Below, piece by piece: positions 5,986-26,653 of a stretch of DNA of 64,000 nucleotides; the stretch's first letter is position 1; each line of letters starts with the position of its first letter. The stretch covers positions 1,412,510 through 1,476,509 of the forward strand of contig OZ220493.1 in NCBI GenBank assembly GCA_965116205.1, given 5' to 3'. The position numbers and the translations under genes are program-made. The notes beneath the pieces are model-generated. The model was given only the letters and a program-made list of their open reading frames with translations, ran no database searches and had not been told where the DNA came from. The stretch comes from Arenicellales bacterium. Its GTDB lineage: Bacteria > Pseudomonadota > Gammaproteobacteria > Arenicellales > JAJDZL01.

Positions 5986-5993
5986 AGGAATAG

Positions 5994-6473
5994 ATGTCTC
6001 GCTTGATACGATTAAGGAAAGTTGAAAAATCTGCTGCCGTACCTCATTACGAACTGCGGGTGTGTCATCATGGGCCGGCGGATTTCAATTACGAAATATG
6101 GCAATTACCAACTGTCGCTTCACCGCACCTGAAGTGTGCGTTACGAGTTGCTGGACTACGAGGTCGCAATCTTGAGTTGGTGGAGCATCGAATTCTGAAA
6201 CGGCTTTCTCAATCTGGTGTTAAATTAGTAAGACATACCGATAGTGATACACGGGGTTACACTTTGACTGAAGATTTGGCATTGATTCTAGGGCTTCTAT
6301 TCCGTACGTTGGCTCCGATGCGCAACAGAGATAATATGCGCGCGGTAGCAGAAGGTATTGAGGCGATGAGTCGCGAAGAGACTGCATACTGGCTTGGCAT
6401 GGCGATGCACCGAAAACACCCTAGAAGAGTATTGACTGCGTTGCGATGGCTACTAACCGCTCCCAGAAAATAA
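5994..6473 (+). CDS. small operon protein of unknown function (possibly the DUF3780-type partner of DUF499; unverified)
   Basis: 159 aa. SD AAGGAA precedes the ATG, which lies 8 nt after the upstream stop. No motif recognised; the position matches the small gene often found beside DUF499. Confidence 0.5.
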   Translation: MSRLIRLRKVEKSAAVPHYELRVCHHGPADFNYEIWQLPTVASPHLKCALRVAGLRGRNLELVEHRILKRLSQSGVKLVRHTDSDTRGYTLTEDLALILGLLFRTLAPMRNRDNMRAVAEGIEAMSREETAYWLGMAMHRKHPRRVLTALRWLLTAPRK

Positions 6474-6483
6474 ACAGAGGCTT

Positions 6484-7200
6484 ATGGTGAGAATTGAACC
6501 AGAAATCAGTGGTGTCAGTATTGTGTTGTTGGGAGATTTCAATCCGGCAATATTCACCCCCGCTTGGTTTGCACTTCATGGCCTACTAACTGAGCAAGCG
6601 GCAAATAGTGCGAATTTACAAATCGCCCATCCTGATCTAACCATTTTTTCGACTGAGTGGGTTGAACTTTCGATTCAACGGAATCACTTCCAAGCGAGTA
6701 CCCAAAGAGAGCCCTACATTCGAGTATGTGATCTCTTAGTTCGCGTGTTCAAGGAGCATTTGTACCATACCCCAATTAAAGCATTCGGTATCAATCGTGA
6801 AGTTCACTTTCGAGTAAAAAACCAAGTTGAGCGAGACAACATTGGCAAATTGTTGGCACCTATTGAGCCATGGGGACCGTGGAAGGATGAACTCAAATTT
6901 GACGATGTCTACGGAGGAATGACTTCGCTGACAATGTCTCAGAATCGTCTTCCAGATCGTCCGCAGGGCAGTATTAACATAACCGTCGAACCATCATTGC
7001 GTATTGCGGATATGCAGTCTGGAATTTATGTCAGAATAAACGATCACTACGCGATAGAAAGTACTGATACTGAGGGGCAGGTAAAATCAATTAAATTTCT
7101 AGAAGATCGTTTTGAGGAATCTATCAAACGCAGCGATGGCATCGTTGATCATGTCATGTCCCTTTCGCAGAAAAAAGGAGAAGTTAATGAGTCAATCTAG
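6484..7200 (+). CDS. hypothetical protein (orphan, operon-embedded)
   Basis: 238-aa ORF starting 10 nt after the upstream stop, with GAGG upstream of the ATG. No recognisable catalytic motif. Confidence 0.55.
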   Translation: MVRIEPEISGVSIVLLGDFNPAIFTPAWFALHGLLTEQAANSANLQIAHPDLTIFSTEWVELSIQRNHFQASTQREPYIRVCDLLVRVFKEHLYHTPIKAFGINREVHFRVKNQVERDNIGKLLAPIEPWGPWKDELKFDDVYGGMTSLTMSQNRLPDRPQGSINITVEPSLRIADMQSGIYVRINDHYAIESTDTEGQVKSIKFLEDRFEESIKRSDGIVDHVMSLSQKKGEVNESI

Positions 7201-7798
7201 TCAAACCATAGAAATTGAGAACTTAAATACGTCGGTACATGGAGACAGTATAGAAAGAAAAAACTCTTTACCGTATCTTCTATCAAGTGCCGAAAACGAA
7301 ATCAAACGTGTATTGACACCAGTTAACTCTTCAAAGACAAGTAATTTACCGACAAATACCACAGCCACTGTAATTCAGCCCAATCCTTCCGAAAACTACG
7401 TTTGGAAAAAAGGCATCTCTGCACCGATCATAGAACTTCCGTTGCCCAAGACACCTGTCCGACCAAAAACTACTTTTCGAGCATTGCAAGAGTGGGAAGG
7501 ATATGTAGTCAGTATTGAAGAAGATGAGTTCGTGGCTCGTCTGATAGATATAACAGCCGGTGCCACATGTGAAACCGAAGAAGCGATAATTCCACTGAAA
7601 GAAATTTCCGATAATGATGTGGCCAATTTGGAGATCGGTAGCAAATTTCGTTGGGTAATTGGTTACGAGCAATCACCCGAGGGGACGCGAAAACGGATAT
7701 CTGAGATCATCTTCCGCGATCTTCCGAGAATAACTGAAAGCGACTTGCAAGCGGGTAGAGAGTGGGCTAAAAAGATAATTGCGGCTTTCACATCGTGA
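7187..7798 (+). CDS. hypothetical protein (S/T/N/P-rich N-half, compact C-terminal domain)
   Basis: I prefer the internal ATG at 7187 (SD AAGGAG at 7175-7180, 6 nt upstream) to the tracked 7112. It overlaps the upstream gene by 14 nt. 203 aa, no motif recognised. Confidence 0.5.
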   Translation: MSQSSQTIEIENLNTSVHGDSIERKNSLPYLLSSAENEIKRVLTPVNSSKTSNLPTNTTATVIQPNPSENYVWKKGISAPIIELPLPKTPVRPKTTFRALQEWEGYVVSIEEDEFVARLIDITAGATCETEEAIIPLKEISDNDVANLEIGSKFRWVIGYEQSPEGTRKRISEIIFRDLPRITESDLQAGREWAKKIIAAFTS

Positions 7799-8886
7799 CT
7801 GAAGCAAAAAAGCAACCAGGAAAAAGAGAGTTCGAGTTGACGCTTATTGGACCTGGTTACGGCGAGAGCATCATTCTGCATGTTGGCAACAACGTGTGGG
7901 TTGTCGTTGATTCCTGTTCTGACCCTACTGAAAAGGTGGGTGCTCTGCACTACTTAAAGAGTATTGGTGTCAACCCGAAACACAAAATTGCTCTGATCGT
8001 AGCGACGCACTGGCACGACGATCACATACGCGGAATGGCTGATTTGGTTGAACTTTGCCATCACGCAGAATTTTGCTGCTCAAATTCTCTTTGTTGTGAG
8101 GAGTTTCTGACATTGTTGGGAACGTTTGAAGGTCGAGAAGTTTCTCCAACCAAACATGGATTGAAGCAACTCCATAGTGTGTTTTCTCAATTAGAACAAC
8201 TCGGAAAGAAACCAATATTTGCATCGGCTAATCGAGTTATATTCGAGAGAGATGCATGCACCATCAAGTCGCTATCACCAGGAGACGATACATACCTGAG
8301 TTTTTTGAATTCTATACGACGATTAATCCCTCAACATGGTGAAAACAAGACACAGATTCCTAGCCTATCGCCTAACAAGACTTCGGTCGTACTATGGATT
8401 GAGTGCGGTGAATGTACAGTGCTTCTAGGAGCTGATCTAGAACGTCAGGGGTGGACAACTATACTGACGAATTCGGTACGTCCCAAAGGTGCAGCTTCGG
8501 TTTTTAAGATTCCTCATCACGGTTCGAAAAACGCGGATGAACCTGAAGTATGGAATCGAATGCTCGAAAAAAAACCTTTCGCGGTAGTTGCACCCTGGCA
8601 ACAAGGAGGATGGTCTCGTTTTCGGCCAACTATTTGCGATGTTAAGCGTATTTTGGAGTTTACTCCAAATGCCTGGATTACAACAAGTAAAGGGACATAT
8701 CATCAATCCAAACCAAAACACAAGAATGCTACCGTACAACGAACCTTACGCGAAAGCGGTACGAAGATTCAACCTCTGGTAGGTGATAGAGGGATGGTAC
8801 GGTTGCGTCGTTCAATAGACTCAATTGATACTTGGAAAGTAGAGAAGTTTGGAGAAGCCTGCCATCTCTCTGACTACGTGGTTTGA
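7795..8886 (+). CDS. metallo-beta-lactamase-fold hydrolase, ComEC/Rec2-like subtype (candidate nuclease)
   Basis: 363 aa. MBL motif ATHWHDDH; downstream VLLGADLE...FKIPHHGSKNA is typical of ComEC-type MBL domains. The GTG start overlaps the upstream stop (GTGA, 7795-7798). Confidence 0.75.
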   Translation: MTEAKKQPGKREFELTLIGPGYGESIILHVGNNVWVVVDSCSDPTEKVGALHYLKSIGVNPKHKIALIVATHWHDDHIRGMADLVELCHHAEFCCSNSLCCEEFLTLLGTFEGREVSPTKHGLKQLHSVFSQLEQLGKKPIFASANRVIFERDACTIKSLSPGDDTYLSFLNSIRRLIPQHGENKTQIPSLSPNKTSVVLWIECGECTVLLGADLERQGWTTILTNSVRPKGAASVFKIPHHGSKNADEPEVWNRMLEKKPFAVVAPWQQGGWSRFRPTICDVKRILEFTPNAWITTSKGTYHQSKPKHKNATVQRTLRESGTKIQPLVGDRGMVRLRRSIDSIDTWKVEKFGEACHLSDYVV

Positions 8887-8893
8887 TATACCC

Positions 8894-11857
8894 ATGTCTG
8901 ACAAACGTCTGATTGAAGATTGGTTGCCGATAGAAGAACTTGGTATTGAGAGTCTGCGAGAAAGGACACCGATGACTCCATATCCGGCTCCGAATCGTTT
9001 GCATGTCTGGTGGGCACGTCGGCCGTTGGTGGCATCACGTGCCGCCATTCTGGCTTCCTTACTACCGGCGGATGCAAACCACGAGAAGTTTCTACACGTG
9101 TTAGGAATTCATGGCAATCCGGTAGCCGCGCGAACCGCTATAGATGAGGCTAGACGATCTGGAAGACGCGTGACCAATCCTTACAACTATGATCGGGCTT
9201 TCAAGTATCTGCCCACACAAAATATACAAAACGAGGAAGGTGAAGAAGATTCTGATCTGAATTGGCTCGAAAAGAATATCAACTCGTCCTTGAACACAAT
9301 CAGAGTTTGCGACCCAACGGCAGGTGGGGGTAGCATTCCTTTTGAGGCTGCAAGATTTGGTCTTGGGACTATCGGAAACGATTTAAATCCTGTGGCGGCC
9401 CTTATATTGAAGGCTACGGTGGCGTGGCCCACAGAATTTTATGATGAGATATTGGATCAGTTTACATCATTGGCTAGTGAATGGCGCGCTCATCTTGAAA
9501 ATCGTTTGGGAACTTTTTTTCCGCAGAAAGCAGACAACGACCAAAGAGATCATACTTATCTCTGGGCGCGTACAATCACCTGTCCGTATTGTAACGGTTT
9601 GGTTCCACTGTCTCCAAACTGGAAACTTGCGCCTGATGGAACAGGTGTTCGATTGAAACCGAATATAAGCGGAGGTCCCGGAACAGAGGGCAGGGCCTGT
9701 TCATTTGAAATCGTCGAGAATTCACGCGATCAATCACAGGGCACAGTGACGCGTGGTGACGCTATCTGTCCGTTTCTAGATTGTGGGCGCGTTATTGATA
9801 GCGATGAAATCAAAAGACAGGCTCAATCAGGACATGTAGGCGAACAGCTTTTTGCTATTGTTTACAAAAGACAAATATCTGGTAAAAATCTCAAGTCTGG
9901 AAAAGAAGGAAGGAAGAAATGGGTTCGCGGCTACCGCACACCCGACCAATGGGACGACAACAGTGCTGAGGCTAGAGAATATCTTGAACAGAAACTACCT
10001 GAATGGGAAGCGCTTGATATCGTGCCAAGAGAACGAATGCCAGATGGATATAGCACCTCGCATCCCAAACAATACGGCGTATCGTTATGGAATGACCTGT
10101 TTTCGCCGCGCCAACTTCTCTGTCACGGTATCAGTGTCGAGGTTTTTCGAGATATGCTTGAAGCTGATCGAAAAAGAGAACGATTGAATGATCCTCGCAA
10201 AGCAGCATATGGATATCTAGCCATTGTGATAGATACTATGTTGAACTACAACTCTCGATGTGGACGTTGGGATAGCACGACGTGTAGAGTAAGGTCAATA
10301 TTTGATAGACATGATTTCGCATTTGTGTGGTCTTACGGTGAGATGGCACCTTTGGTGAAAGGTGTGGGTTTTGATTGGGCCATCCAGAAGACAGTTAAGT
10401 GCATCAATGAACTTTTGTCACTGATTGATCCAAAAAAAGAGTGTTCTGAGATGGAAGACATGTTTGCAGATGAATACAAGCCGCCTCCAATTTCAATATC
10501 TTGCAAGTCTGGTGACAGTCTTGACCATATTGAGGATGGAAGCATTGACGCAGTAGTGATGGATCCTCCTTATTACGACAATGTTATGTATGCTGAACTC
10601 TCGGATTTCTTTTATGTTTGGCTCAAGCGTACTGCCGGTTACATCTATCCTGAACTTTTTCGCCGTAATTTAACTGACAAGGAAAATGAGGCAGTCGCCA
10701 ATCCCGGCCGGTTCCATGGCATGAAGGGTGCAAAGGCGCTTGCAAGACGTGAATATCAAGAACGGATGTCGTCTATCTTTGCTGAGTGTCGACGGGTACT
10801 AAAACCTGATGGCATTATGACTCTAATGTTTACACACAAGGCGACAGGTGCTTGGGATGCACTCACGAAAGGTTTGATGGAATCAGGATTCATGATCAAA
10901 GCATCGTGGCCCATAAAAACGGAGGCAGAAGGAAGCCTTCATATTCGCAACAAAGCGGCGGCTAATAGCACGATATTTTTGGTCTGCCGCCCACGCCCTA
11001 AGGTGGAAAGCGATCAAGTTGTTTACTGGGAAGAAGTAGAGTCGGAAGTTGCGGAAAAAGTCCATGGGCGAATTAGGGGTTTTGAGAAAGCCGGAATCAA
11101 AGGAGTCGATCTTTACTTGGCTTCGTTCGGACCAGCTTTGGAAGTATTTTCAAGCCATTGGCCGCTAAAACGTGGCACACCACGTGAGCGCTCGTTGCAA
11201 CGGAAAATGCAGTCGAAAAGTATGATTGAAGAGGAAAATGATCCCTACATGGTTACTCCAGAAGATGCGCTTGATGCAGCGCGTCGAGAGGTCAAGAAAT
11301 GGCGCTTAGAACAGATAACTAATCTGAAAACTGAAGTCGACCTTGATACTACCACCGCGTTCTTCGTGCTTGCTTGGGATGCTTTCCAAGCGCCCAAATT
11401 TTCCTACGATGAGGCATTGCGTCTTGCCCGCGCAGTTGGTGTGAATCTTGACCGCGACGTTGTAGGTAGATTGGCCAAGAAAGAGGGTAGCAACATCGTA
11501 TTGTGGGACAGTAGTGTGAGGGCGGCAAAGGGGACACTTGGACCAGCGGATGCTTCACGAGGTATGATTGACGCTATCCATCACGCGGCAAATCAGGCTC
11601 GCACGCGTTCACTTAAAGCTGCGCAACAACTGCTTGCAGACACAAGGGTAGATCAGAATCCCAGTTTTAAAATAGCACTCAAGGCGGTGATTGAAGTGCT
11701 GCCTCAGTCTAAGTCGTTCACAGAATTCAATCTCGAAGGCGACTTGGCGGCTTCGGGTGATGACTACGAAGCTCTCTACAATCTGAATCGCCTGTTTTAC
11801 AGCGATCGAGTCAAATTGCCCGAACAGGAAAAAATCGGTTTCGAAAACAAAAATTGA
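8894..11857 (+). CDS. DUF1156-type DNA methyltransferase with Zn-ribbon (N6-A/N4-C class, DPPY)
   Basis: ATG at 8894, 7 nt after the MBL stop; the tracked 8849 start would overlap the MBL gene. N-terminus MSDKRLIEDWLPIEELG; SAM motif DPTAGGGSIPFEA; catalytic VMDPPYYD; Cys pairs CPYCNG and CPFLDCG. Confidence 0.85.
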   Translation: MSDKRLIEDWLPIEELGIESLRERTPMTPYPAPNRLHVWWARRPLVASRAAILASLLPADANHEKFLHVLGIHGNPVAARTAIDEARRSGRRVTNPYNYDRAFKYLPTQNIQNEEGEEDSDLNWLEKNINSSLNTIRVCDPTAGGGSIPFEAARFGLGTIGNDLNPVAALILKATVAWPTEFYDEILDQFTSLASEWRAHLENRLGTFFPQKADNDQRDHTYLWARTITCPYCNGLVPLSPNWKLAPDGTGVRLKPNISGGPGTEGRACSFEIVENSRDQSQGTVTRGDAICPFLDCGRVIDSDEIKRQAQSGHVGEQLFAIVYKRQISGKNLKSGKEGRKKWVRGYRTPDQWDDNSAEAREYLEQKLPEWEALDIVPRERMPDGYSTSHPKQYGVSLWNDLFSPRQLLCHGISVEVFRDMLEADRKRERLNDPRKAAYGYLAIVIDTMLNYNSRCGRWDSTTCRVRSIFDRHDFAFVWSYGEMAPLVKGVGFDWAIQKTVKCINELLSLIDPKKECSEMEDMFADEYKPPPISISCKSGDSLDHIEDGSIDAVVMDPPYYDNVMYAELSDFFYVWLKRTAGYIYPELFRRNLTDKENEAVANPGRFHGMKGAKALARREYQERMSSIFAECRRVLKPDGIMTLMFTHKATGAWDALTKGLMESGFMIKASWPIKTEAEGSLHIRNKAAANSTIFLVCRPRPKVESDQVVYWEEVESEVAEKVHGRIRGFEKAGIKGVDLYLASFGPALEVFSSHWPLKRGTPRERSLQRKMQSKSMIEEENDPYMVTPEDALDAARREVKKWRLEQITNLKTEVDLDTTTAFFVLAWDAFQAPKFSYDEALRLARAVGVNLDRDVVGRLAKKEGSNIVLWDSSVRAAKGTLGPADASRGMIDAIHHAANQARTRSLKAAQQLLADTRVDQNPSFKIALKAVIEVLPQSKSFTEFNLEGDLAASGDDYEALYNLNRLFYSDRVKLPEQEKIGFENKN

Positions 11858-14800
11858 CGATGTTGCGGAACCACAAATGGAAACTCAAATACACTCTTGA
11901 AGATGGTGACCTCAACAAGTGTTTTTATGTCCCTGCTCTGGAGGATGCGAGACGTTACGATCGAATATCCGGCTACTTCACCGCTACCGCCCTAGCACTC
12001 GCAGCGCGTGGAATTGAAAGTCTGGTGTGTAATGAGGGTCGTATGCGACTTGTAGTCGGTTGCACGCTGAAACAGCCCGAAATTGAAGCCATAAAACGCG
12101 GGGAACAGGTTCGCACCCTTGTTGAACAGAACTTAAGACAACTTCCGCTCACCCCACCGGACTTGGAATCAAATGATGCACTAGAGCTATTAGCATGGAT
12201 GGTTGCATGCGGAATTCTCGAAGTGAAAGTTGCTGTTCCCTGTAATGAAGAGGGCCTGCCGACAGCGGAAAATGCATTACTGCACGCCAAAACCGGTATC
12301 ATTATGGACCGGATGGGTGATCGAATCGCTTGGACTGGCAGTCTCAACGAAACAGGGGCCGGGTGGCGGAATAACTGGGAGAGTATTCATGTTTACACCA
12401 GTTGGGGTTCTGACCTTGAAAGAGTGGTTGAAGAAGAGGAAAATTTTGCTCGTATTTGGTTAGGTGAGGCGCAGCGTCTCATCGTGTTGGATGTTCCTGA
12501 AGCAGTTCGTAAAGAACTATTGCGCTTTAAGCCAAATTCAGGACTCCCCAAACGCTTAGAATCGACTGAAATTGACGAATCGCCAGAGAATCTTTTACGA
12601 GATCGAGTCTGGAAATTCATACAAGGACCGCCGTCGCAGGCAGGAAACAGTCAGAGCATCAGTGAGTCCACCGCTCCAGTCCTTCCCTGGCCGCATCAAA
12701 TTCGGGCATTTGAACGTCTGAATAGAAAATGGCCACCTCGCCTACTGATTGCAGACGAGGTGGGTTTGGGTAAAACCATACAGGCCGGACTACTCTTACG
12801 CCAAGCATGGCTTGATGGACGAGCAAAGAGAATTTTAATTCTAGCCCCCAAAGCAGTACTCAAACAGTGGCAGGTTGAGTTGCGAGACAAGTTCAACTTA
12901 AATTGGCCCATCTATGATGATGGCAAGCTGAGCTGGCATCCTTCGCCGGCGTTGCAGGGGCAAAATATACGTGAAGTTGGACGAGACCAATGGCATCGTG
13001 AACCAATTGTCATCGCTTCAAGCCAATTGATGCGGCGTGCCGACAGAGCACTTGAACTTCAGGAAAATGCCGAGCCTTGGGATCTGTTGGTACTTGACGA
13101 GGCACACCACGCACGCCGGCGCGCTGCAGCTAGCAGTCAGGAAGACAGGCCTAACGCCTTACTGAAACTGATGCGGACCTTGAAGGATCGTACAAAAGGT
13201 CTAATTCTAATGACGGCGACACCGATGCAAGTACATCCTATTGAGGTCTGGGACCTACTTGATCTACTAGGTTTGCCATCGGAATGGAACTCAAAATGTT
13301 TTCTAGACTTTTTTGAAGATGCCAATCAATTTAAACCTTCAGTAGATACTTTTGAACAGATGGCATTGCAGTTTCAAGCGATCGAGCGGGCATACGGTGA
13401 GACCAAGGTGATAGACGTAAAAAATTTGGTTGATCTTTCACAATGGAGTATTGCCAAGATACTTCGTGTGCTTCGCGGCAAACCCAGTATTCCTCGCCGC
13501 AAGCTGGAAGCCGATGAACGTCGTGGGGCAGTTGCAATCATGCGTACTGAAACCCCGGTTCGTAGACTGATCTCGCGAAACACCCGTGATTTACTGCGAC
13601 ATTACCACCAGCGTGGAATGATGAAAATGTCAGTTGCTAATCGTCACGTTGATGATTGCTTTCTCAAACTGACTCAAAGGGAGAGGGTGATTTACGACGC
13701 AGTGGAAGACTACATTGCAACTGTTTATGACAATGCTCGTGTTGATGAACGCAATGCAGTAGGTTTTATCATGACAGTTTATCGTCGTCGCCTAGCCAGT
13801 AGTTTTAATGCACTTAGCAAAACTCTACAGAAGCGTAGGAACACACTCGAACATTCGAACGAAGTCAAGTCAATTGACAATGACATTGCGATGAGTGACG
13901 ACATTCCAGATGATGAGACGACTGACGACATTCTTGATATTGAGGAATTGAATGACCTTGCTCGGAAAGCACTGCAGAAAGAAGAGCATAGTGAAATTGA
14001 ACATTTGCTTTCACAAATTCAAGCTTTACCGCCTGACAGTAAACTTGACACTCTGAAAACTGTTCTTACTGATTTGAACGATGATGGTTACCAACAGGTG
14101 ATGATTTTCACACAGTACACAGATACGATGGAATTTTTACGCGACTCATTGCAATTTGACAGCAGTCGAAAGTTGATGTGTTTTTCCGGGCGCGGTGGAG
14201 AAGTCTTCAATTCCATTGATAATTGGCAGTTGATCGGACGAGAAGATGCCAAACGAAGGTTCAGAAATGGCGATGCAGATCTTCTGATTTGTACGGATGC
14301 CGCAGCGGAAGGTCTGAACTTTCAGTTTTGTGGTGCCATGGTCAATTACGACATGCCTTGGAACCCGATGCGAGTTGAACAGCGCATCGGGCGCATTGAC
14401 CGATTAGGTCAAGAATTTTCGACCATTCGCATAGTGAATATGCATTACGAGGGAACGATCGAAGCAAATATTTATCGTGTATTGGGCGAACGAATTGATT
14501 TGTTCAAGAACGTGGTGGGACGATTGCAACCGATTTTGGCTCGACTACCAAGCACAATAACGCAAAGTGTGCTTACAGGTAAGAATAGGAATATAGAAGA
14601 ACGTGCGAATATTTTCTCGGAAATTGAAACGGACATCGCTCGTTCCAAGGAAATGGGATTTGACATTGATGGAATCACAGAGAGCAATCTCAACATGCCA
14701 GATCGAGAGCCATCAATTATCACTATGGAAGACCTCAACAGAATCATCACTTCTGAAAACTTAATGTCGGACAGTATTAAAATCCAACAACTGGGAGCCC

Positions 14801-14997
14801 ACGAATATGGATTCTCAGTACCGGGTAGAAACAATCCAATAAGGGTAACAACGGACCCAAGGTATTTTGAAGAGCACACGGAAGATATGGAATTCTGGTC
14901 ACCTGGAAATCCACTGTTCATTGCCCCAGATTACGCGGCTGATGTAGAGCTGGACTCTTCGCAAAGGACACTGAAGGATATCCTTGACAGTGGTTGA
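11854..14997 (+). CDS. HKD (phospholipase-D-like nuclease) domain fused to SNF2/DEAD-like helicase
   Basis: About 1,045 aa. N-terminal HKD motif HAKTGIIMD...GSLNET. Helicase motif I ADEVGLGKT, motif II LVLDEAHH, motif VI QRIGRIDRLGQ. The start is either TTG 11854, overlapping the upstream stop, or ATG 11860. Confidence 0.85.
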   Translation: MTMLRNHKWKLKYTLEDGDLNKCFYVPALEDARRYDRISGYFTATALALAARGIESLVCNEGRMRLVVGCTLKQPEIEAIKRGEQVRTLVEQNLRQLPLTPPDLESNDALELLAWMVACGILEVKVAVPCNEEGLPTAENALLHAKTGIIMDRMGDRIAWTGSLNETGAGWRNNWESIHVYTSWGSDLERVVEEEENFARIWLGEAQRLIVLDVPEAVRKELLRFKPNSGLPKRLESTEIDESPENLLRDRVWKFIQGPPSQAGNSQSISESTAPVLPWPHQIRAFERLNRKWPPRLLIADEVGLGKTIQAGLLLRQAWLDGRAKRILILAPKAVLKQWQVELRDKFNLNWPIYDDGKLSWHPSPALQGQNIREVGRDQWHREPIVIASSQLMRRADRALELQENAEPWDLLVLDEAHHARRRAAASSQEDRPNALLKLMRTLKDRTKGLILMTATPMQVHPIEVWDLLDLLGLPSEWNSKCFLDFFEDANQFKPSVDTFEQMALQFQAIERAYGETKVIDVKNLVDLSQWSIAKILRVLRGKPSIPRRKLEADERRGAVAIMRTETPVRRLISRNTRDLLRHYHQRGMMKMSVANRHVDDCFLKLTQRERVIYDAVEDYIATVYDNARVDERNAVGFIMTVYRRRLASSFNALSKTLQKRRNTLEHSNEVKSIDNDIAMSDDIPDDETTDDILDIEELNDLARKALQKEEHSEIEHLLSQIQALPPDSKLDTLKTVLTDLNDDGYQQVMIFTQYTDTMEFLRDSLQFDSSRKLMCFSGRGGEVFNSIDNWQLIGREDAKRRFRNGDADLLICTDAAAEGLNFQFCGAMVNYDMPWNPMRVEQRIGRIDRLGQEFSTIRIVNMHYEGTIEANIYRVLGERIDLFKNVVGRLQPILARLPSTITQSVLTGKNRNIEERANIFSEIETDIARSKEMGFDIDGITESNLNMPDREPSIITMEDLNRIITSENLMSDSIKIQQLGAHEYGFSVPGRNNPIRVTTDPRYFEEHTEDMEFWSPGNPLFIAPDYAADVELDSSQRTLKDILDSG

Positions 14998-15431: not shown

Positions 15432-15575
15432 ATGAACAAGCTTAGACTGTTTATTGGACAAAGGGTTTTTTAAGTTTACGCAAAGATGACAGTTTCTATG
15501 TGGATAAAACACACCATATCCAAAATGGTATTGATAACGATAAATTCTATTTTTCGTCTCAGCGTAGCAACACAT
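15432..15575 (+). pseudogene. frameshifted, truncated N-terminal remnant of a fourth AAA-ATPase-like/PD-(D/E)XK paralogue
   Basis: ATG 15432 gives MNKLRLFIGQRVF*. After a 1-nt frame slip in the GGGTTTTTT run (15463-15471) the reading continues GFLSLRKDDSFYVDKTHHIQNGIDNDKFYFSS. This aligns residue-for-residue with MRKLKLPIGAASFARLRNNGCYYVDKTPHINKLIDDGDYYFLS of the intact copies. Similarity is lost before the RPRRFGKS P-loop. Confidence 0.55.
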
Positions 15576-15737: not shown

Positions 15738-16883
15738 TTAAACCGAGGTGCCTTTGATGATGTTCAGCAATTCAGAAAATGCCATAACAGCGGCTCTGCT
15801 TCCTCGTCCCTCATGGATAATCTTCAGAGTTTCATTCTCGCGCAGACTGTTGAGTATCCGTCGTGCTGTAGTCGATGGAACTTTCGCCTGATGCAGAAAA
15901 TCAGTACTCCGGAAAATAGGCCGCTCAAAGATCCAGTCCAGGGCAAAGATAGCGTATTGAGAGCGGGTCAACTCAACAATATCAGTTTTCATGGTGTTGT
16001 AAAAGTTGATGATGTTTCTGCATTTCGTTAAATTGTCTTCAGCCTGATGTCTGATGGCTTTAAGAAAAAACTGACACCACCCGGTCCAGTCGTTATCACG
16101 GGATACTGCAAGTAGACCATCGTAGTAGGCTTCTGGATGAGTTTCCAAATAAGCGCTGATATAGAACATAGGTGCATGAATCAGTTCTACCTGCCAGAGG
16201 AACAGCGGCACGAACATCCGCCCTAAGCGACCATTACCATCCAAGAATGGGTGAATTGCTTCAAATTCGGCATGAAGAATGGCTAGTTGCACCAGTTTGT
16301 CGGGTGCCTCGGCGTGAATGTAGCGTTCCCAAGCACTCATGGCGTCGGGAATTTTGCCGGCCTCTATCGGTACGAACCGCGCCTCTTCCTGAGTGCAACC
16401 GGGTGGGCCGATCCAATTAGGAACGCGTCGATAATCGCCTGGTGACTTCCCTTTACCTTGCGCCCCGCGCAGCAACACTTGGTGTGCCTGTAGGAGAACT
16501 CTTTGAGAGAGTGGTAGATTCTTCAGTAATTGTATGGCCTGTCGCAAGGCGGCGCAGTAGTTGCGCACTTCATCAATGTCGTGACGACGCTGAGAGGAGT
16601 CTGGCTTCCACCCCGCTTCAAATTGCAATACCTCGGCCATGGTGGCTTGAGTTCCCTCAATTCGAGACGATAGCACCGCTTCTTGGGTTGTCAGTGGGGC
16701 CAGCAGAACACTAGGATTTGGGATGGTAGCGAGTGTACCGTCGTAGCGCGCCAGTGCGAAAGTCGCGGGTCCGATATGAGGAATCAGTTGGCGCCAATCA
16801 AGTTGTCCTTCAGGCGGAAAGCGGCCAGGCTGGTAGTAAACGGGTGGCATTGAATTCTCTTGAACTCCAGCACGCCTAGCCAT
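15738..16883 (-). CDS. Fic family protein, class II (N-terminal auto-inhibitory helix), probable AMPylase
   Basis: 381 aa. Fic motif HPFLDGNGRLGR; inhibitory motif SSRIEG, which fits (S/T)xxxE(G/N), lies N-terminal of the core. The C-terminal region looks like a winged helix. Confidence 0.9.
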   Translation of the reverse strand: MARRAGVQENSMPPVYYQPGRFPPEGQLDWRQLIPHIGPATFALARYDGTLATIPNPSVLLAPLTTQEAVLSSRIEGTQATMAEVLQFEAGWKPDSSQRRHDIDEVRNYCAALRQAIQLLKNLPLSQRVLLQAHQVLLRGAQGKGKSPGDYRRVPNWIGPPGCTQEEARFVPIEAGKIPDAMSAWERYIHAEAPDKLVQLAILHAEFEAIHPFLDGNGRLGRMFVPLFLWQVELIHAPMFYISAYLETHPEAYYDGLLAVSRDNDWTGWCQFFLKAIRHQAEDNLTKCRNIINFYNTMKTDIVELTRSQYAIFALDWIFERPIFRSTDFLHQAKVPSTTARRILNSLRENETLKIIHEGRGSRAAVMAFSELLNIIKGTSV

Positions 16884-17689: not shown

Positions 17690-17950
17690 ATCATCTCGCC
17701 CCCATCAATTGATGTACAAATTTGGCAACCATTTCCAGCACTCTCAACTTCAGCGTCAGTTCCTTTCCAGAACTATCTGTTTAGTGCGCATTTGATGATT
17801 CAAGGTGTAGCATTTTACTTGTTGGAAATGGAATGAGTGGTGAGTTGACAATGATTGACCATTTTACTGTGCATCTCTCAACCGAGAGGCAATGTCGAAC
17901 TCCCATTTGTAATACAATTGCAATAATAGAACTAGTGCGAACATACGACA

Positions 17951-19519
17951 ATGAGCCATTTCAAACTGCCAATCGGTGAAGCATCCTTTCCAGAAATCAG
18001 GAAACAGAACTGTTACTATGTGGACAAGACGCCACATATTCAGAAGCTAACTGATGAGGGCAAGTACTGGTTTCTGTCTCGCCCGCGGCGGTTCGGTAAA
18101 TCATTGCTCATCTCCACTCTGAAGGAACTGTTCGAAGGGAATGAACCGCTGTTCCGTGGCCTGCACATCCACGACCGCTGGGACTGGAACATCCGATATC
18201 CGGTAGTGCGATTAAGTTTTGATGCCAGTTTTGGCAGGCCGGGCAAACTTAACCGCTATACGATCCAACAGCTAGCTAAGCAGGAAAAAAGTGCTGGTCT
18301 TGAGCCGGCACTCCAGACCGACGATTCGGACGAGCGTTTGCAGGACGTCATTTTTAATCTCCATGCTGCTACCGGGCAAGGAGTGGTGGTGCTGGTGGAT
18401 GAATATGACAAGCCACTTTTGGATCTGTTGGACAACCCACAGCAGGCGGAAGCCAACCGCCAGTGCCTGCATGGTGTGTATGGCATTCTCAAGGGCTGTG
18501 CCGACCAGCTCCGGTTCGTTTTCGTCACCGGCATCAGCATGTATTCCAAGGTGAGTCTGTTCTCCGGCATGAATAATCTGGAAGACATCAGCCTCGACCC
18601 CGAGTATGCCGCCATATGTGGGTATACGGATAGGGAAATCGACACGGTGTTTGCCCCGGAACTGGCAGGACTCGACCGCAGTGAGATGCAGCGCTGGTAC
18701 AACGGCTACCACTGGCTCGGGCGAGAGAAAGTCTATAACCCCTTCGACATCCTGCTGCTGTTCAAAAAAAGACAGTTCAAACCGTATTGGTATGCCACCG
18801 GCACGCCCAGTTATCTACATGGTCGGCTGGCCCGCGGTGGTGTCAATACGCTGCAGTTGGAGAACCTGGAGTTGTATGAAAAGGAACTGTCCAATTTCAA
18901 TATTGACAACATCAGCATCAATGCGCTGCTGTTCCAGTGTGGCTATCTGACCATCGTCGATCAGGCGCTGCGCGGTTCCAGGATGTGTTATACCCTGACC
19001 TACCCCAACCATGAAGTGCGCATCTCACTCAACGAGGAACTGCTCGAAGCGATCAGTGACCAAAGTCAGCTGACGGAGCTGTCCGGTAAGGGTGAGCGAC
19101 TGATTGAACGGTTGGACGCCAATGACTTTGATGGGTTCCAAGCGGCCGTGCATGCGTTTTTCTCCGCCATTCCGCATCAGTGGCATGATCGTAGCGACCT
19201 CGCCCGTTATGAGGCATTTTTCACCAGCGTGCTGTATTCCTGTTTCGTGAGTCTCGGTGTTACGGTGACGGGGGAAGAATCATCCAGTCATGGTCGTGCT
19301 GATCTGGTGGTGACCCGGGGTGAACAGGTGTTCATCTTGGAATGCAAGATGCAGGGCGACGGTACGGCGGCAGCGGCACTGGCTGAGGCGGTGGCGCAGT
19401 TGCGCGAGAAGAAATATGCCAACAAGTATCGGACTGAAGGCCGTAAGATTCATCTGTTGGCGATGGTGTTTGAACGTGAGGACCGCAATCTGGTGCAGTT
19501 CAACGTGGAAAGCCTGTGA
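17951..19519 (+). CDS. AAA-ATPase-like domain + PD-(D/E)XK nuclease-like domain protein, paralogue 1
   Basis: 522 aa. N-terminus LPIGEASFPEIRKQNCYYVDKTPHI; P-loop-like SRPRRFGKS; Walker-B-like VVLVDEYDKP; C-terminal GRADLVV...VFILECK (D...ExK). Confidence 0.85.
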   Translation: MSHFKLPIGEASFPEIRKQNCYYVDKTPHIQKLTDEGKYWFLSRPRRFGKSLLISTLKELFEGNEPLFRGLHIHDRWDWNIRYPVVRLSFDASFGRPGKLNRYTIQQLAKQEKSAGLEPALQTDDSDERLQDVIFNLHAATGQGVVVLVDEYDKPLLDLLDNPQQAEANRQCLHGVYGILKGCADQLRFVFVTGISMYSKVSLFSGMNNLEDISLDPEYAAICGYTDREIDTVFAPELAGLDRSEMQRWYNGYHWLGREKVYNPFDILLLFKKRQFKPYWYATGTPSYLHGRLARGGVNTLQLENLELYEKELSNFNIDNISINALLFQCGYLTIVDQALRGSRMCYTLTYPNHEVRISLNEELLEAISDQSQLTELSGKGERLIERLDANDFDGFQAAVHAFFSAIPHQWHDRSDLARYEAFFTSVLYSCFVSLGVTVTGEESSSHGRADLVVTRGEQVFILECKMQGDGTAAAALAEAVAQLREKKYANKYRTEGRKIHLLAMVFEREDRNLVQFNVESL

Positions 19520-19527
19520 AGATGAGC

Positions 19528-19548
19528 AGTGCCGTTCGGTCCACTTTT
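19528..19548 (+). terminator. weak hairpin + T-run after paralogue 1
   Basis: AGTGCCG-TT-CGG(TC)CACT followed by TTT. The equivalent site after paralogue 2 carries compensatory changes. Confidence 0.3.
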
Positions 19549-19723
19549 AGTGATTTGATATGCAGCATTTTATTGATTGCTCATTGATGAGTGATGTTTC
19601 TAAAATGTCATCTGTCTCGTTATTTCCCCGGTGGTTATCGAGAGGGGCCGGCGCATGAGTGGAGCTGTCAGATTCTCCCTTGTGATACAATTTCGATGAC
19701 ACCGCTACTCAGTACATACGGCA

Positions 19724-21292
19724 ATGAGAAAGTTGAAACTTCCAATCGGCGCCGCTTCTTTTGCCAGGCTTCGGAACAATGGATGTTACTATGTGGATAA
19801 GACACCGCACATCAATAAACTAATTGATGATGGCGATTATTATTTTCTATCCCGCCCGCGGCGGTTTGGAAAGTCCGTGCTGGTCTCCACTCTGCAGGAA
19901 CTGTTCGAAGGGAATGAAGAACTGTTCCGTGGCCTGCACATCCACGATCACTGGAACTGGGATATCAAGTACCCGGTGGTGCGACTGAGTTTCGACACGG
20001 GGTATGGCGAACCACAATCTCTGCACGACGATTTGCTGGATCAGTTGGAATTGCTTGAAGATGCTGCGAACATCACCCCGTCTTCGACCGCGCGGACCGG
20101 CCCCGGTCAGCTGCGAAATCTAATCGTCAGACTGCATCAGGACACCGGTCAGCGCGTCGTAGTGCTAGTGGATGAATATGATAAGCCCATTTTGGATCAG
20201 TTGAACAATCCGCCGCAGGCGGAAGCCCACCGCCAATATTTGCATGGCCTATATGGCATCCTCAAAGGCTGTGCCGAGCAGCTTCGGTTCGTCTTCGTCA
20301 CCGGCATAAGCATGTATTCCAAAGTCAGTCTGTTCTCCGGCATGAACAATCTTCGCGACATCAGTCTGAATCCCGATTACGCTACCATATGTGGTTATAC
20401 GGATAGGGACATCGACACGGTGTTCGCGCCGGAACTGGCAGGACTCGATCGCAGTGAGATGCAGCGCTGGTACAACGGCTACCACTGGCTCGGACAGGAG
20501 AAAGTCTACAACCCCTTTGACATCCTGCTGCTGTTCGCTGAGCGAATGTTCAAACCGTACTGGTATGCCACCGGCACGCCCAGTTATCTACATGGCCGGC
20601 TGGCGCGTGGTGGCGTCAATACGCTACAGTTGGAGAACCTGGAACTGTATGAAAAGGAACTGTCCAATTTCAACATTGATAAGATCAGCATCAACGCGCT
20701 GCTGTTCCAGTGTGGTTATCTGACCATCGTCGATCAGGAGTTGCGCGGTTCTAGGATGTGCTATACCCTGACCTACCCCAATCATGAAGTGCGCATCTCA
20801 CTCAACGAGGAACTACTCGAAGCGGTCAGTGACCAGGGACAGCTGACGGGGCTGTCTGGTCAGGGTGAGCGGCTGATTGAACGGTTGGACGCCAATGACT
20901 TTGATGGGTTCCAAGCGGCAGTGCATGCGTTTTTCTCTGCCATTCCGCATCAGTGGCATGATAGCAGCGACCTCGCCCGTTATGAGGCGTTTTTCAGCAG
21001 TGTGCTGTATTCCTGTTTCGTGAGTCTTGGTGTTACGGTGACGGGGGAAGAATCATCCAGTCACGGTCGTGCCGACCTGGTGGTGACCCGTGGTGAACAG
21101 GTGTTCATTCTGGAGTGCAAGATGCAGGGCGATGGTACGTCGGCAGCGGCACTGGCTGAGGCGGTGGCGCAGCTGCGCGAGAAGAAATATGCCAACAAGT
21201 ATCGAACCGGCGATCATAAAGTTCACCTGCTGGCAATGGTGTTTGAACGTGAGGACCGCAATCTGGTACAGTTCAGTGTGGAAAGCCTGTAA
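19724..21292 (+). CDS. AAA-ATPase-like domain + PD-(D/E)XK nuclease-like domain protein, paralogue 2
   Basis: 522 aa, same motifs as paralogue 1, start offset 1,773 bp from paralogue 1. Confidence 0.85.
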   Translation: MRKLKLPIGAASFARLRNNGCYYVDKTPHINKLIDDGDYYFLSRPRRFGKSVLVSTLQELFEGNEELFRGLHIHDHWNWDIKYPVVRLSFDTGYGEPQSLHDDLLDQLELLEDAANITPSSTARTGPGQLRNLIVRLHQDTGQRVVVLVDEYDKPILDQLNNPPQAEAHRQYLHGLYGILKGCAEQLRFVFVTGISMYSKVSLFSGMNNLRDISLNPDYATICGYTDRDIDTVFAPELAGLDRSEMQRWYNGYHWLGQEKVYNPFDILLLFAERMFKPYWYATGTPSYLHGRLARGGVNTLQLENLELYEKELSNFNIDKISINALLFQCGYLTIVDQELRGSRMCYTLTYPNHEVRISLNEELLEAVSDQGQLTGLSGQGERLIERLDANDFDGFQAAVHAFFSAIPHQWHDSSDLARYEAFFSSVLYSCFVSLGVTVTGEESSSHGRADLVVTRGEQVFILECKMQGDGTSAAALAEAVAQLREKKYANKYRTGDHKVHLLAMVFEREDRNLVQFSVESL

Positions 21293-21300
21293 AGATGAAC

Positions 21301-21320
21301 AGTGCTGTTCAGTTCACGTT
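21301..21320 (+). terminator. weak hairpin after paralogue 2
   Basis: AGTGCTG-TT-CAG(TT)CAC then GTTT. CCG/CGG in copy 1 becomes CTG/CAG here, a compensatory pair. Confidence 0.3.
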
Positions 21321-21369
21321 TAGTGATTTGATATGCAGAATTTTGTTGATTGCTGATTGATTCTCCCTT

Positions 21370-21399
21370 TTGACAAAATTTCAATGACACCTTTACTTA
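21370..21399 (+). promoter_or_regulatory. candidate sigma70-type promoter of paralogue 3
   Basis: Perfect -35 TTGACA (21370-21375), 18-nt spacer, weak -10 TACTTA (21394-21399), ATG at 21412. This implies a very short leader. A degenerate version precedes paralogues 1 and 2. Confidence 0.3.
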
Positions 21400-21411
21400 G
21401 TACATACGGCA

Positions 21412-22980
21412 ATGAGAAAGTTCAAACTGCCAATCGGTGAAGCATCCTTTCCAGAGATTAGGAAACAGAACTGTTACTATGTGGACAAGACGCCACATAT
21501 TCAGCAACTGACTGATGATGGCAAGTACTGGTTCCTATCGCGCCCGCGGCGGTTTGGAAAATCTCTGCTCATTTCCACTCTGCAGGAACTGTTCGAAGGG
21601 AATGAAGAATTGTTCCGCGGCCTGCACATCCACGATCACTGGAACTGGGCTATCAAGTACCCGGTGGTGCGACTGAGTTTCGACACGGGGTATGGCGAAC
21701 CACAATCTCTGCACGATGATTTGCTCGATCAGCTGGAGCCGCTTGAAGATGACGCAGACATCGACGCATCTTCGACCGCGCGCACCGGTCCCGGTCGGTT
21801 GCGAAATCTAATCGTCAGACTGCATCAGAACTCCGGTCAGCGCATCGTAGTGCTGGTGGATGAATACGATAAGCCCATTTTGGATCAGCTGAACAATCCG
21901 CAGCAGGCGGAAGCCAACCGCCAATACCTACACGGCCTGTATGGAATGCTCAAGGGCTGTGCCGAGCAGCTCCGGTTCGTCTTCGTCACCGGCATCAGCA
22001 TGTATTCCAAAGTCAGTCTGTTCTCGGGTATGAACAATCTCCGCGACATCAGTCTGAATCCCGATTACGCCACCATATGTGGTTATACGGATACGGACAT
22101 CGATACGGTGTTCGCGCCGGAACTGGAAGGACTCGACCGCAGTGAGATGCAGTGGTGGTACAACGGCTACCACTGGCTCGGTCGGGAGAAAGTCTACAAC
22201 CCCTTCGACATCCTGCTGCTGTTCGCTGAGCGAATGTTTAAGCCGTATTGGTATGCCACCGGCACGCCCAGTTATCTACATGGTCGGCTGGCGCGCGGTG
22301 GCGTCAATACGCTGCAGTTGGAGAACCTGGAGTTGTATGAAAAGGAACTGTCCAATTTCAATATTGACAACATCAGCATCAATGCGCTGCTGTTCCAGTG
22401 TGGTTATCTGACCATCGTCGATCAGGCGCTGCGCGGTTCGCGGATGTGCTATACCCTGACCTACCCCAATCATGAAGTGCGCATCTCACTCAACGAGGAA
22501 CTGCTCGAAGCGGTCAGTGACCAGGGTCAGCTGACGGAACTATCAAGTAAGGGTGAGCGGCTGATTGAACGGTTGGACGCCAATGACTTTGATGGGTTCC
22601 AAGCGGCCGTGCATGCGTTTTTCTCCGCCATTCCGCATCAGTGGCATGACCGCAGCGACCTCGCCCGTTATGAGGCGTTTTTCACCAGTGTGCTGTATTC
22701 GTGTTTCGTGAGTCTCGGTGTTACGGTGACGGGGGAAGAATCATCCAGTCACGGTCGTGCCGACCTGGTGGTGACCCGTGGCGAACAGGTGTTCATCTTG
22801 GAATGTAAGATGCAGGGGGACGGCACGGCGGCAGCGGCACTGGCTGAGGCGGTGGCGCAGCTGCGCGAGAAGAAATATGCCAACAAGTATCGGGCCGGCG
22901 ATCATAAAGTTCACCTGCTGGCGATGGTGTTTGAACGTGAGGACCGCAATCTGGTGAAGTTTAGCGTGGAAAGCTTGTGA
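21412..22980 (+). CDS. AAA-ATPase-like domain + PD-(D/E)XK nuclease-like domain protein, paralogue 3
   Basis: 522 aa, same motifs, start offset 1,688 bp from paralogue 2. Confidence 0.85.
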   Translation: MRKFKLPIGEASFPEIRKQNCYYVDKTPHIQQLTDDGKYWFLSRPRRFGKSLLISTLQELFEGNEELFRGLHIHDHWNWAIKYPVVRLSFDTGYGEPQSLHDDLLDQLEPLEDDADIDASSTARTGPGRLRNLIVRLHQNSGQRIVVLVDEYDKPILDQLNNPQQAEANRQYLHGLYGMLKGCAEQLRFVFVTGISMYSKVSLFSGMNNLRDISLNPDYATICGYTDTDIDTVFAPELEGLDRSEMQWWYNGYHWLGREKVYNPFDILLLFAERMFKPYWYATGTPSYLHGRLARGGVNTLQLENLELYEKELSNFNIDNISINALLFQCGYLTIVDQALRGSRMCYTLTYPNHEVRISLNEELLEAVSDQGQLTELSSKGERLIERLDANDFDGFQAAVHAFFSAIPHQWHDRSDLARYEAFFTSVLYSCFVSLGVTVTGEESSSHGRADLVVTRGEQVFILECKMQGDGTAAAALAEAVAQLREKKYANKYRAGDHKVHLLAMVFEREDRNLVKFSVESL

Positions 22981-24124: not shown

Positions 24125-24601
24125 ATGTCAGAAAAGCCTATTCATGTGTTATTTCTGTGTACCGGCAACTCTGCGCGTAGCATCCTCTGTGAAGCGATGC
24201 TCAATCATTTCGGAGACGCGCGTTTCAAAGGCTTCAGCGCCGGTAGTCAACCCAAGAATGCGGTGCATCCAATGACACTCAAAACACTTGAAAAATTCGG
24301 CGCCTCGACCCAACAGTATCGCTCGAAGAGTTGGGATGAATTTTCCGGAAACTTTGCGCCGGTAATGGATATCGTGGTTACCGTGTGCAGTAACGCAGCG
24401 GCAGAAGTTTGTCCGGTCTGGCCGGCGTCAACCGTTGTGGCGCATTGGCATATGGCCGACCCGGCGGCTTATGTCGGTTCCATAGCGGCGCAGGAAAAGC
24501 AATTTGAACGGACGCGGCGGGTGGCTCATTCAGCAGTATCGGAACTGGTTCAAACCGTTCTTAACGATTCTGATCCTAAAACGCCAGTTCCATTCCTTTA
24601 A
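24125..24601 (+). CDS. arsC: arsenate reductase, low-molecular-weight phosphatase (thioredoxin-coupled type) family
   Basis: 158 aa. P-loop LCTGNSARS; downstream Cys pair VCSNAAAEVCP; SKSWDEF and HW..ADPA blocks are typical of proteobacterial LMWP-type ArsC. Confidence 0.8.
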   Translation: MSEKPIHVLFLCTGNSARSILCEAMLNHFGDARFKGFSAGSQPKNAVHPMTLKTLEKFGASTQQYRSKSWDEFSGNFAPVMDIVVTVCSNAAAEVCPVWPASTVVAHWHMADPAAYVGSIAAQEKQFERTRRVAHSAVSELVQTVLNDSDPKTPVPFL

Positions 24602-24646
24602 TTCCATTTGGGCGCGCGGCTCAGTTCCATTCCTTTAATTCCATTT
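24585..24646. repeat. 25-bp direct duplication spanning the arsC stop codon
   Basis: CAGTTCCATTCCTTTAATTCCATTT occurs at 24585-24609 and again at 24622-24646, separated by GGGCGCGCGGCT. Confidence 0.6.
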
Positions 24647-24658
24647 TAGCGCATCTCA

Positions 24659-24682
24659 GATAAGAGGCGATACTTATCGCCT
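24659..24682. terminator. inverted repeat between convergent arsC and betC (possible bidirectional terminator)
   Basis: GATAAG-aggcgata-CTTATC, or alternatively AGGCGATA-ct-TATCGCCT. No strong T-run. Confidence 0.3.
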
Positions 24683-24731
24683 ATCAATGCCTGCGCCCGG
24701 CGAATATGAGGATAACAGAGAATCGATCTGT

Positions 24732-26624: not shown

Positions 26625-26653
26625 TCGAATGCCAACATTTGACCATCTATAAT
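26625..26653 (+). promoter_or_regulatory. candidate promoter upstream of aprBA
   Basis: -35 TCGAAT (26625-26630), 17-nt spacer, consensus -10 TATAAT (26648-26653), about 185 nt upstream of the aprB ATG. Weak -35. Confidence 0.3.

Follow-up and report, generated by a model that had tools for sequence, protein, structure and literature searches.

The DUF1703 family was defined by Knizewski et al. (2007) as an AAA+ module joined to a PD-(D/E)XK nuclease, with an unusual Walker A motif, RPRRFGKS, and with analogous NACHT–Mrr fusions (PMC1913061). For Cardinium hertigii cCpun, Siozios et al. (2019) reported an expansion to at least 25 DUF1703 paralogues, with reticulate evolution and with recombination detected by RDP and by the pairwise homoplasy index (PHI), along with independent expansions of the family in scattered taxa; the function was left unknown (PMC6387759). 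In a 2023 review, RADAR (RdrA), PARIS1 and Old-tin appear with the PF09820 ATPase domain (PMC10952713). Literature matches also place the domain in whitefly papers. DUF1703 is among the larger uncharacterized prokaryotic families and, recognized since 2007, is without an assigned function. Here we describe an array of three DUF1703 genes on contig OZ220493.1 of an Arenicellales bacterium, within a 64-kb stretch of DNA, which as a whole is called the window below.

The array consists of three open reading frames (ORFs) of 522 residues each, arranged head-to-tail on the plus strand with start offsets of 1,773 and 1,688 bp (Table 1). An earlier note, made from the sequence, had given these coordinates, lengths and offsets exactly. 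The proteins are 82% (copies 1 and 2), 85% (copies 1 and 3) and 92% (copies 2 and 3) identical, and no further full DUF1703 copy was found in the window. All three match PF09820 (AAA-ATPase_like) over residues 7–204 (E ≈ 1e-55; 185–190 bits, cutoff 26.1) and PF08011 (PDDEXK_9) over residues 420–516 (E ≈ 1e-17; 61–65 bits, gathering cutoff 25.5), as the earlier note had assigned them. Each carries the Walker A motif RPRRFGKS (residues 44–51), the Walker B motif DEYD (150–153) and the PD-(D/E)XK residues E421, D451, E464 and K466. The active-site residues are conserved: among 139 diverse homologues, G49, K50, S51, D150, E151 and the four nuclease residues of the E-D-ExK motif are each kept in 90% or more. 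The locus is thus shown to encode three DUF1703 members, each made up of a PF09820 AAA+/STAND-like ATPase, a lid, a winged-helix-like hairpin, a helical linker and a PF08011 nuclease.

The similarity between the copies is segmental. The motif contrasts quoted in the earlier note are all present in the alignment: copies 1 and 3 agree over residues 1–60 and copies 2 and 3 over residues ≈60–160, KKRQF stands against AERMF near residue 275, and NIDNIS/DQALRG against NIDKIS/DQELRG near residues 315–340. Among 307 informative nucleotide sites, 178 set copy 1 apart, 87 copy 2 and 42 copy 3. Adjacent sites had the same pattern in 187 pairs, compared to 132.5 ± 7.5 (maximum 165) in 10,000 permutations, none of which reached the observed value (z = 7.3), and the longest runs of sites, 29 and 14, exceeded the permutation maxima of 25 and 10. 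The proposed mosaicism is thus beyond chance. Likelihood segmentation grouped copies 1 and 3 over nucleotides 6–160 (35 of 48 sites) and copies 2 and 3 over nucleotides 162–489 (107 of 129 sites); the remainder of the gene had mixed site patterns.

Divergence was estimated per segment by the Nei–Gojobori method, as non-synonymous and synonymous distances (dN, dS) and proportions of differences (pN, pS). The whole-gene dS among the three copies was 0.31–0.59. The lowest segment value was 0.086, between copies 2 and 3 over residues 55–92, whereas copies 1 and 2 reached 1.3 over residues 1–54; dN/dS was 0.06–0.30 in all segments. From this wide range of dS and the low dN/dS it follows that the copies are old and intact, that they are under purifying selection and that their segments have had separate histories. 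The C-terminal ≈330 residues, described earlier as nearly identical, are 95–100% identical as protein, but their synonymous sites do differ, with dS of 0.15–0.28 for the three pairs over residues 281–490, and the copies are therefore not young. The strongest divergence was found just after the P-loop, where the earlier note had located it: over residues 93–145, copy 1 differs from copies 2 and 3 with a pN of 0.51 and saturated synonymous sites (pS 0.80). Over nucleotides 301–400, copy 1 is only 37–41% identical to copies 2 and 3, which are 82% identical to each other.

At least 16 DUF1703 paralogues lie on the same 3,328,990-bp contig, at least 12 of them at 76–95% identity and four at 54–63%. 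They were gathered by a protein search and a cluster look-up, which added four, and exchange between the array and the paralogues outside the window was compared at the protein level only. Copy 1 is nearest to P0270 and P0271 (90%) and P0002 (89%), all outside the window, and only 82–85% identical to copies 2 and 3. In the segment-wise comparison, the best match was often a paralogue outside the array. Residues 1–54 of copy 2 belong to a lineage other than that of copies 1 and 3 and are nearest to P0273 (83%), and its residues 491–522 are identical to P0003. The N-terminus of copy 3 resembles copy 1, P0270 and P0002, and its residues 93–145 match P0007 and P0006 (89%) better than they match copy 2 (Table 1).

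Residues 93–145 fall into three discrete types. Type A is carried by copy 1, P0270, P0271, P0003 and P0008; type B by copies 2 and 3, P0006, P0007 and, more distantly, P0047 and P0054; and type C by P0002, P0004, P0273, P0274 and P0026. Combined in different ways with two C-terminal variants, the types are common to paralogues of only 56–61% overall identity, and type-B-like segments are present in another genome too. Judged by these protein-level comparisons, the exchange runs across a dispersed multigene family and is wider than gene conversion among three copies. The family evolves by birth and death together with homologous segment exchange among tandem and dispersed paralogues, with purifying selection on every copy.

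An AlphaFold model of the protein, made with the 139-sequence alignment, had a pLDDT of 94.3 and a pTM of 0.92; with 12 close paralogues, the pLDDT was 55. In the predicted structure, the hypervariable segment coincides exactly with a helical hairpin between β2 and the strand that bears Walker B (Table 1). When entropy was compared over 114 family members, the hairpin stood out as the sole high-entropy stretch of the otherwise very conserved ATPase domain (≈2.2 bits), most 10-residue blocks between residues 41 and 290 having an entropy of 0.0–1.3 bits; the C-terminal half is likewise variable in the wider family. A Foldseek search of the PDB returned no whole-chain relative. The N-terminal two thirds aligned to the STAND ATPase Dark/Apaf-1 (probability 1.0, 397 columns, TM 0.32), and the C-terminus aligned to the nuclease modules of HincII, Hjc and CidB/CinB. 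A sequence-profile search of the PDB gave nothing at E ≤ 1, and the Pfam NACHT and NB-ARC families gave no match even at E ≤ 10. The chain stops at residue 522 with the nuclease domain, and no repeat or sensor domain follows at the C-terminus. In the model, the two-helix hairpin sits where, by topology, the ORC/Cdc6/DnaA clade has its DNA-contacting initiator-specific helical insertion; the Foldseek match to ORC was weak.

From its sequence, each copy looks like a transcription unit of its own, with a candidate promoter whose −10 lies 32 nt before the start codon. The 53-bp leader of copy 2 (19671–19723) is 87% identical to that of copy 3 (21359–21411). A 69-bp element follows copies 1 and 2 and is not present after copy 3. 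As a candidate structured RNA or terminator this element was rejected, with no Rfam match and folding z-scores of 0.16 and −0.93 for its two occurrences. A degenerate version upstream of copy 1, where colinear 7–9-nt matches occur at ≈17756–17817, each of them non-significant, is a weak possibility.

Related loci were collected by a scan of species-representative genomes, which gave 164 related stretches, the best 77 of which were examined. Metagenome-assembled genomes (MAGs) labeled Arenicellales, Candidatus Poriferihabitaceae, Pseudohongiella, Latescibacterota, Vicinamibacterales, Binatia and Gemmatimonadota carry these 77 loci, at 47–60% identity; the MAG names suggest that the lineages are sponge-associated. 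Two Arenicellales chromosomes account for 15 and 17 of the 77, with many fragments present, and copies number in the dozens in related Arenicellales MAGs. One 13.5-kb locus (L020) holds six full copies head-to-tail, and the run goes on into the overlapping loci L026–L029. When two arrays of a related genome were subjected to PHI tests, the values were 0.325 (vs 0.418 ± 0.014) and 0.255 (vs 0.513 ± 0.013). For neither array did any of 1,000 permutations give a value as low as the observed one, so that recombination is significant in both. A TGCTAYAAT-type extended −10 lies ≈30 nt upstream of the ATG in nearly every copy of those related genomes.

The family as a whole is very large, with matches in 16,696 clusters of 50% identity at a cutoff of E ≤ 1e-3 and in 2,542 at E ≤ 1e-30. 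The MAG homologues across Gammaproteobacteria, Latescibacterota, Acidobacteriota (Vicinamibacterales), Gemmatimonadota and Binatia are 47–60% identical, compared to 35–41% for most of the closest cluster representatives. Such identity across phyla suggests horizontal exchange inside one community type, possibly sponge microbiomes. Plasmid-borne homologues were found in 64 records, in one example amid RelE/ParE, HipA and MqsA modules. No family member was found in bona fide phage genomes, and phage-borne homologues were rejected as a candidate, the only matches being unannotated fecal contigs. Fusions of the whole DUF1703 core to other domains were present in 4 of the 150 closest 50%-cluster representatives. 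One is a fusion with TIR, encoded by a single continuous ORF; the other three carry a calcineurin-like metallophosphoesterase, N-terminal in two and C-terminal in one, and one of these three also carries NACHT and FGE-sulfatase domains. These architectures belong to the homologues P0188, P0201, P0142 and P0136, outside the window.

The array lies at the edge of a defense island, in which an Hma-like operon is followed by a SoFic gene. The defense operon, the Fic gene and a decayed fourth copy had all been claimed as neighbors in the earlier note, and all three were found. Between its HmaC-like and HmaB-like genes, the operon has extra genes for a DUF7680 protein, two unmatched ORFs and an MBL-fold protein, and its SNF2 helicase has an N-terminal PLD domain. 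The decayed fragment sits between the helicase gene of the operon and the SoFic gene, and ≈1 kb of non-coding DNA separates the SoFic gene from copy 1. It looks as if a former array member has been replaced by a Fic cassette. No tRNA genes were found in the window, and a tRNA integration site was rejected.

We tentatively read the array proteins as self-contained, ATP-switched nucleases that act in conflict with foreign DNA and whose paralogues together serve as a specificity repertoire, an account that falls just short of being probable. Binding or hydrolysis of ATP at the non-canonical P-loop (RPRRFGKS/DEYD) would drive assembly or a conformational change, the trigger being a nucleic-acid or invader-derived cue, and the change in the ATPase would in turn allow DNA cleavage by the C-terminal E-D-ExK nuclease. 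By topology, the hairpin takes the place of the substrate-contacting pore-loop or initiator-specific-motif (ISM) region of other AAA+ proteins. It is the foremost candidate for the element that sets specificity. By keeping many paralogues in which hairpin types A, B and C, as well as C-terminal variants, are shuffled, the cell would have a repertoire for recognition. A role in defense or conflict is plausible because the catalytic residues are conserved, because the array is in a defense island and because of the rare TIR, NACHT and metallophosphoesterase fusions. Also in its favor are the adjoining Hma-like system and SoFic gene, the plasmid homologues amid toxin–antitoxin modules, the effector fusions as such and the fact that the family was not met with in bona fide phage genomes.

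A number of observations weigh against this account. The literature searched contains no experiment on any DUF1703 protein, no PADLOC-DB v2 model matches copy 1 or 2, and no NCBIfam model matches copy 1. Most of the 133 genes that lie next to homologues have housekeeping functions (Dfp, FolD, cytochromes, oxidoreductases, ABC transporters), with no recurrent partner gene and only a handful of defense-like matches among them (no genome-wide background was computed). On the enrichment in defense islands for which the earlier note had proposed such a survey of homologues, the array itself lies in an island and the genes next to homologues are mainly housekeeping; the defense role put forward there remains an inference that has the island around this array and the rare fusions in its support, but not the wider neighborhoods or any PADLOC or NCBIfam match. 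Sixteen to several dozen copies per 3–4 Mb genome far exceeds the usual number for a defense gene. Neither copies 1–3 nor the paralogue pairs had any segment with dN/dS > 1, and the ω of the hairpin, 0.28–0.47 over 727 paralogue pairs and 0.30 for copies 2 and 3, is similar to that of the C-terminal half; diversifying selection on the hairpin is therefore undemonstrated, and positive selection on it was not supported. The hairpin is likened to a pore loop or ISM by its topology alone, in a predicted model. Effector-domain fusions are rare, and the one with TIR is a singleton: a clade of TIR-fused homologues was rejected, TIR being present in 0 of 119 other listed relatives.

In an unlikely but more far-reaching form of the conflict account, the arrays and dispersed copies are a recombination-diversified innate-immune repertoire of minimal NLR-like ATPase–nucleases, where the hairpin sets which foreign nucleic acid or protein is recognized and the exchange of cassettes and C-termini among at least 16 paralogues generates new specificities. 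If true, this would be a bacterial analogue of the recombining NLR clusters of plants and fungi, amplified in symbionts under heavy pressure from phages and foreign DNA. A very abundant single-gene immune module would then join the known defense systems and help to explain the gene-family expansions of symbionts. Should the repertoire idea be wrong, a selfish nuclease of wide distribution is the probable alternative, and this would be worth knowing too. The locus and its relatives provide a compact and testable picture, with single-gene units, intact sites, exchangeable hairpin types and runs of at least six copies.

We consider it doubtful that the array genes are selfish or addictive, that is, an ATPase–nuclease unit with its own promoter and flanks that proliferates for itself in and between genomes, in the manner of a homing or toxin-like element, the mosaic being a by-product of recombining copies. 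Consistent with this explanation, the copies are numerous and scattered beside housekeeping genes, a conserved sequence of ≈80–100 bp upstream and ≈150 bp downstream is common to them, and fragments and pseudogenes are frequent. Identity of ≈50% across phyla of sponge-type MAGs suggests horizontal spread, family members occur on plasmids, the expansions in Cardinium, Rickettsia and Simkania are all in bacteria rich in selfish DNA, and the nuclease is structurally like that of the CifB toxin. However, the singleton copies have no terminal inverted repeats and no significant direct or inverted repeats flanking them, and transposon-like or cassette-like boundaries were rejected. No transposase, integrase, invertase or other recombinase domain was found among the scanned ORFs of the window. 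Nor is there a recurrent antidote-like partner gene. In three MAGs (L037, L038 and L040) the gene lies between ORFs at identical locus coordinates, hinting at a stable position, as a comparison of coordinates and not of flank sequences.

Cellular ATPase–nucleases of DNA metabolism or regulation, with redundant paralogues and with the hairpin as a poorly constrained surface element, are an improbable explanation. Purifying selection on all copies, the housekeeping neighbors and the lack of a non-synonymous excess in the hairpin would agree with such a role, but copy number differs hugely between related genomes, in birth-and-death dynamics, the distribution is patchy and partly plasmid-borne, and some homologues are fused to immune-type effector or sensor domains. 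The persistence of discrete, anciently diverged hairpin types across paralogues and genomes would also be unexpected under neutral drift.

The earlier note had taken the array for a tandem triplication with gene conversion among its members. A recent local event, in which three copies were homogenized or reshuffled among themselves only, is very improbable and has been largely refuted. The head-to-tail layout with its common 69-bp and 53-bp spacer blocks, the site blocks that alternate between copies 1+3 and copies 2+3, and the lowest dS value, that of copies 2 and 3, had spoken for it; against it stand the old whole-gene dS, the at least 16 paralogues on the contig, the greater nearness of copy 1 to P0270, P0271 and P0002 than to its neighbors, the segments in which the best match of each copy lies outside the array, and the cassette types common to distant paralogues and to other genomes. 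Least probable are host-directed effector nucleases, exported by a symbiont onto host or competitor cells as proposed for Cardinium and varying with their host targets. In their favor, expansions of the family occur in host-associated bacteria, the MAGs with related loci belong to sponge-typical lineages (an origin read from names only) and ankyrin-repeat genes make up 4 of the 133 neighbors. Against them, the N-terminus (MSHFKLPIGEASF...) lies within the conserved ATPase domain and is unlike a signal peptide by sequence inspection (no predictor was run), free-living bacteria and plasmids widely carry family members, and no secretion-system genes are found beside the array.

The features of the locus and of the modeled protein are collected in Table 1. 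Directly downstream of the array, at 24125–29287, are genes for an ArsC-like reductase, a choline-sulfatase (above the TIGR03417 cutoff) and the adenylylsulfate reductase AprB/AprA. These sulfur and arsenic genes suggest a sulfur-oxidizing or sulfur-cycling gammaproteobacterium. At 32271–57923 on the plus strand is a single ORF of 8,550 codons, the first 2,000 residues of which are dense in fibronectin type III/Ig-like repeats, with nine fn3 stretches. Its interior reaches 62–65% GC, compared to ≈47–50% in the surrounding DNA, and includes a 345-bp unit repeated 2.1 times at 44574–45294. The product is probably a giant adhesin or a eukaryote-like surface protein. Further downstream, a SNF2 helicase with DUF3670 (58547–61777) is followed by a borderline-scoring SWIM zinc-finger match (61777–62613) and, on the strand opposite to the helicase, by a HATPase_c_4 (RecG-C-terminal-like) protein at 62977–63939. 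The region 58547–63939 may be a second conflict-related cluster.

Table 1. Features of the DUF1703 array and its upstream neighborhood (nucleotide positions in the window) and of the predicted protein structure (residues, aa).
Feature	Position	Strand	Remarks
Hma-like defense operon	2986..14997	+	HmaC-like DUF499 ATPase ... HmaB-like DUF1156 methyltransferase, PLD+SNF2 helicase
DUF7680	5994–6473	+	
Two overlapping ORFs	6484–7200 and 7112–7798	+	no family match
MBL-fold protein	7795–8886	+	weakly resembles DRT- and Lamassu-associated MBL proteins
Decayed DUF1703 fragment	15432..15570	+	≈45 N-terminal codons, frameshift, stop at P-loop position
SoFic-type Fic gene	15738..16883	-	between decayed fragment and copy 1
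Candidate −10 hexamer TACAAT, copy 1	17913..17918	+	32 nt 5' of ATG; in leader conserved among the three units
Copy 1	17951..19519	+	DUF1703 protein, 522 aa, variable hairpin type A
Hypervariable segment, copy 1 (aa 93–145)	18227..18385	+	nucleotide identity to copies 2/3 37–47%
69-bp element	19520..19588	+	directly 3' of copy 1 stop; 88% identical to 21293–21361
Candidate extended −10 TGATACAAT, copy 2	19686..19691	+	32 nt 5' of ATG
Copy 2	19724..21292	+	DUF1703 protein, 522 aa, variable hairpin type B
Hypervariable segment, copy 2	20000..20158	+	type B cassette, also in P0006 and P0007
69-bp element, second occurrence	21293..21361	+	3' of copy 2 stop
Candidate extended −10 TGACAAAAT, copy 3	21374..21379	+	32 nt 5' of ATG
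Copy 3	21412..22980	+	DUF1703 protein, 522 aa, variable hairpin type B
Hypervariable segment, copy 3	21688..21846	+	type B; nearest P0007 (92%), copy 2 only 83%
β1	aa 39–43		AlphaFold model
Walker A	aa 44–51		AlphaFold model
β2	aa 85–89		AlphaFold model
Helical hairpin	H99–114 and H126–141		AlphaFold model
β3 with Walker B DEYD	aa 145–153		AlphaFold model
β4	aa 187–194		AlphaFold model
Helical lid	aa 227–300		AlphaFold model
β-hairpin, winged-helix-like	aa 334–350		AlphaFold model
Helical linker	aa 354–412		AlphaFold model
αβββαββ nuclease fold	aa 418–521		AlphaFold model

Set against other known systems, the array proteins have a PD-(D/E)XK module similar to that of CifB (CidB/CinB; Foldseek probability 1.0, ≈190 columns, rmsd 3.9–8.6 Å). 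The CifB toxins, however, combine two nuclease domains with a cognate partner gene, CifA, whereas the array proteins have one nuclease domain and no partner gene between or beside the copies. No PADLOC model, that of RdrA included, matches copy 1 or 2, and an RdrB-like deaminase partner is absent. The predicted layout may correspond to that of STAND/NLR-like proteins, such as Apaf-1/Dark, bacterial Avs and NACHT–Mrr, where a nuclease effector is joined to a P-loop NTPase with a helical lid and a winged-helix module. STAND/NLR-like receptor families typically undergo lineage-specific expansion and recombination. The array proteins differ from them in that they have no C-terminal repeat or sensor domain, their P-loop is non-canonical and they have no NACHT or NB-ARC sequence match.

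The described DUF1703 proteins (PMC1913061) have the same four-part architecture, with an AAA+ α/β domain, a helical lid, an α-helical middle part and a restriction-endonuclease-like fold, as well as the Walker A and B motifs and nuclease motifs I–IV. Nothing essential differs, and the array genes are members; the model that places the hypervariable hairpin between β2 and Walker B is an addition. With Cardinium cCpun, the array has in common an expansion specific to the lineage, to at least 25 copies in cCpun and at least 16 in the present genome, and recombination between paralogues without homogenization. The two differ in that the host here is gammaproteobacterial (Arenicellales-like) and the copies of the close clade are 78–95% identical, compared to an average of 39% in Cardinium. 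Secretion was predicted for the Cardinium proteins, whereas nothing in the array sequence suggests it. Head-to-tail arrays, a conserved candidate promoter and leader for each copy and the exchange of discrete hairpin types are features of the present genomes in comparison with Cardinium. The expansion of DUF1703 with recombination between paralogues is thus a known phenomenon seen in a new lineage and is incremental by itself. What is added here is a candidate transcription unit for each copy, long head-to-tail arrays in related genomes and strong purifying selection in spite of the mosaicism, together with the placement of the main variable cassette at the predicted hairpin between β2 and Walker B and the persistence of discrete cassette types across paralogues and genomes.

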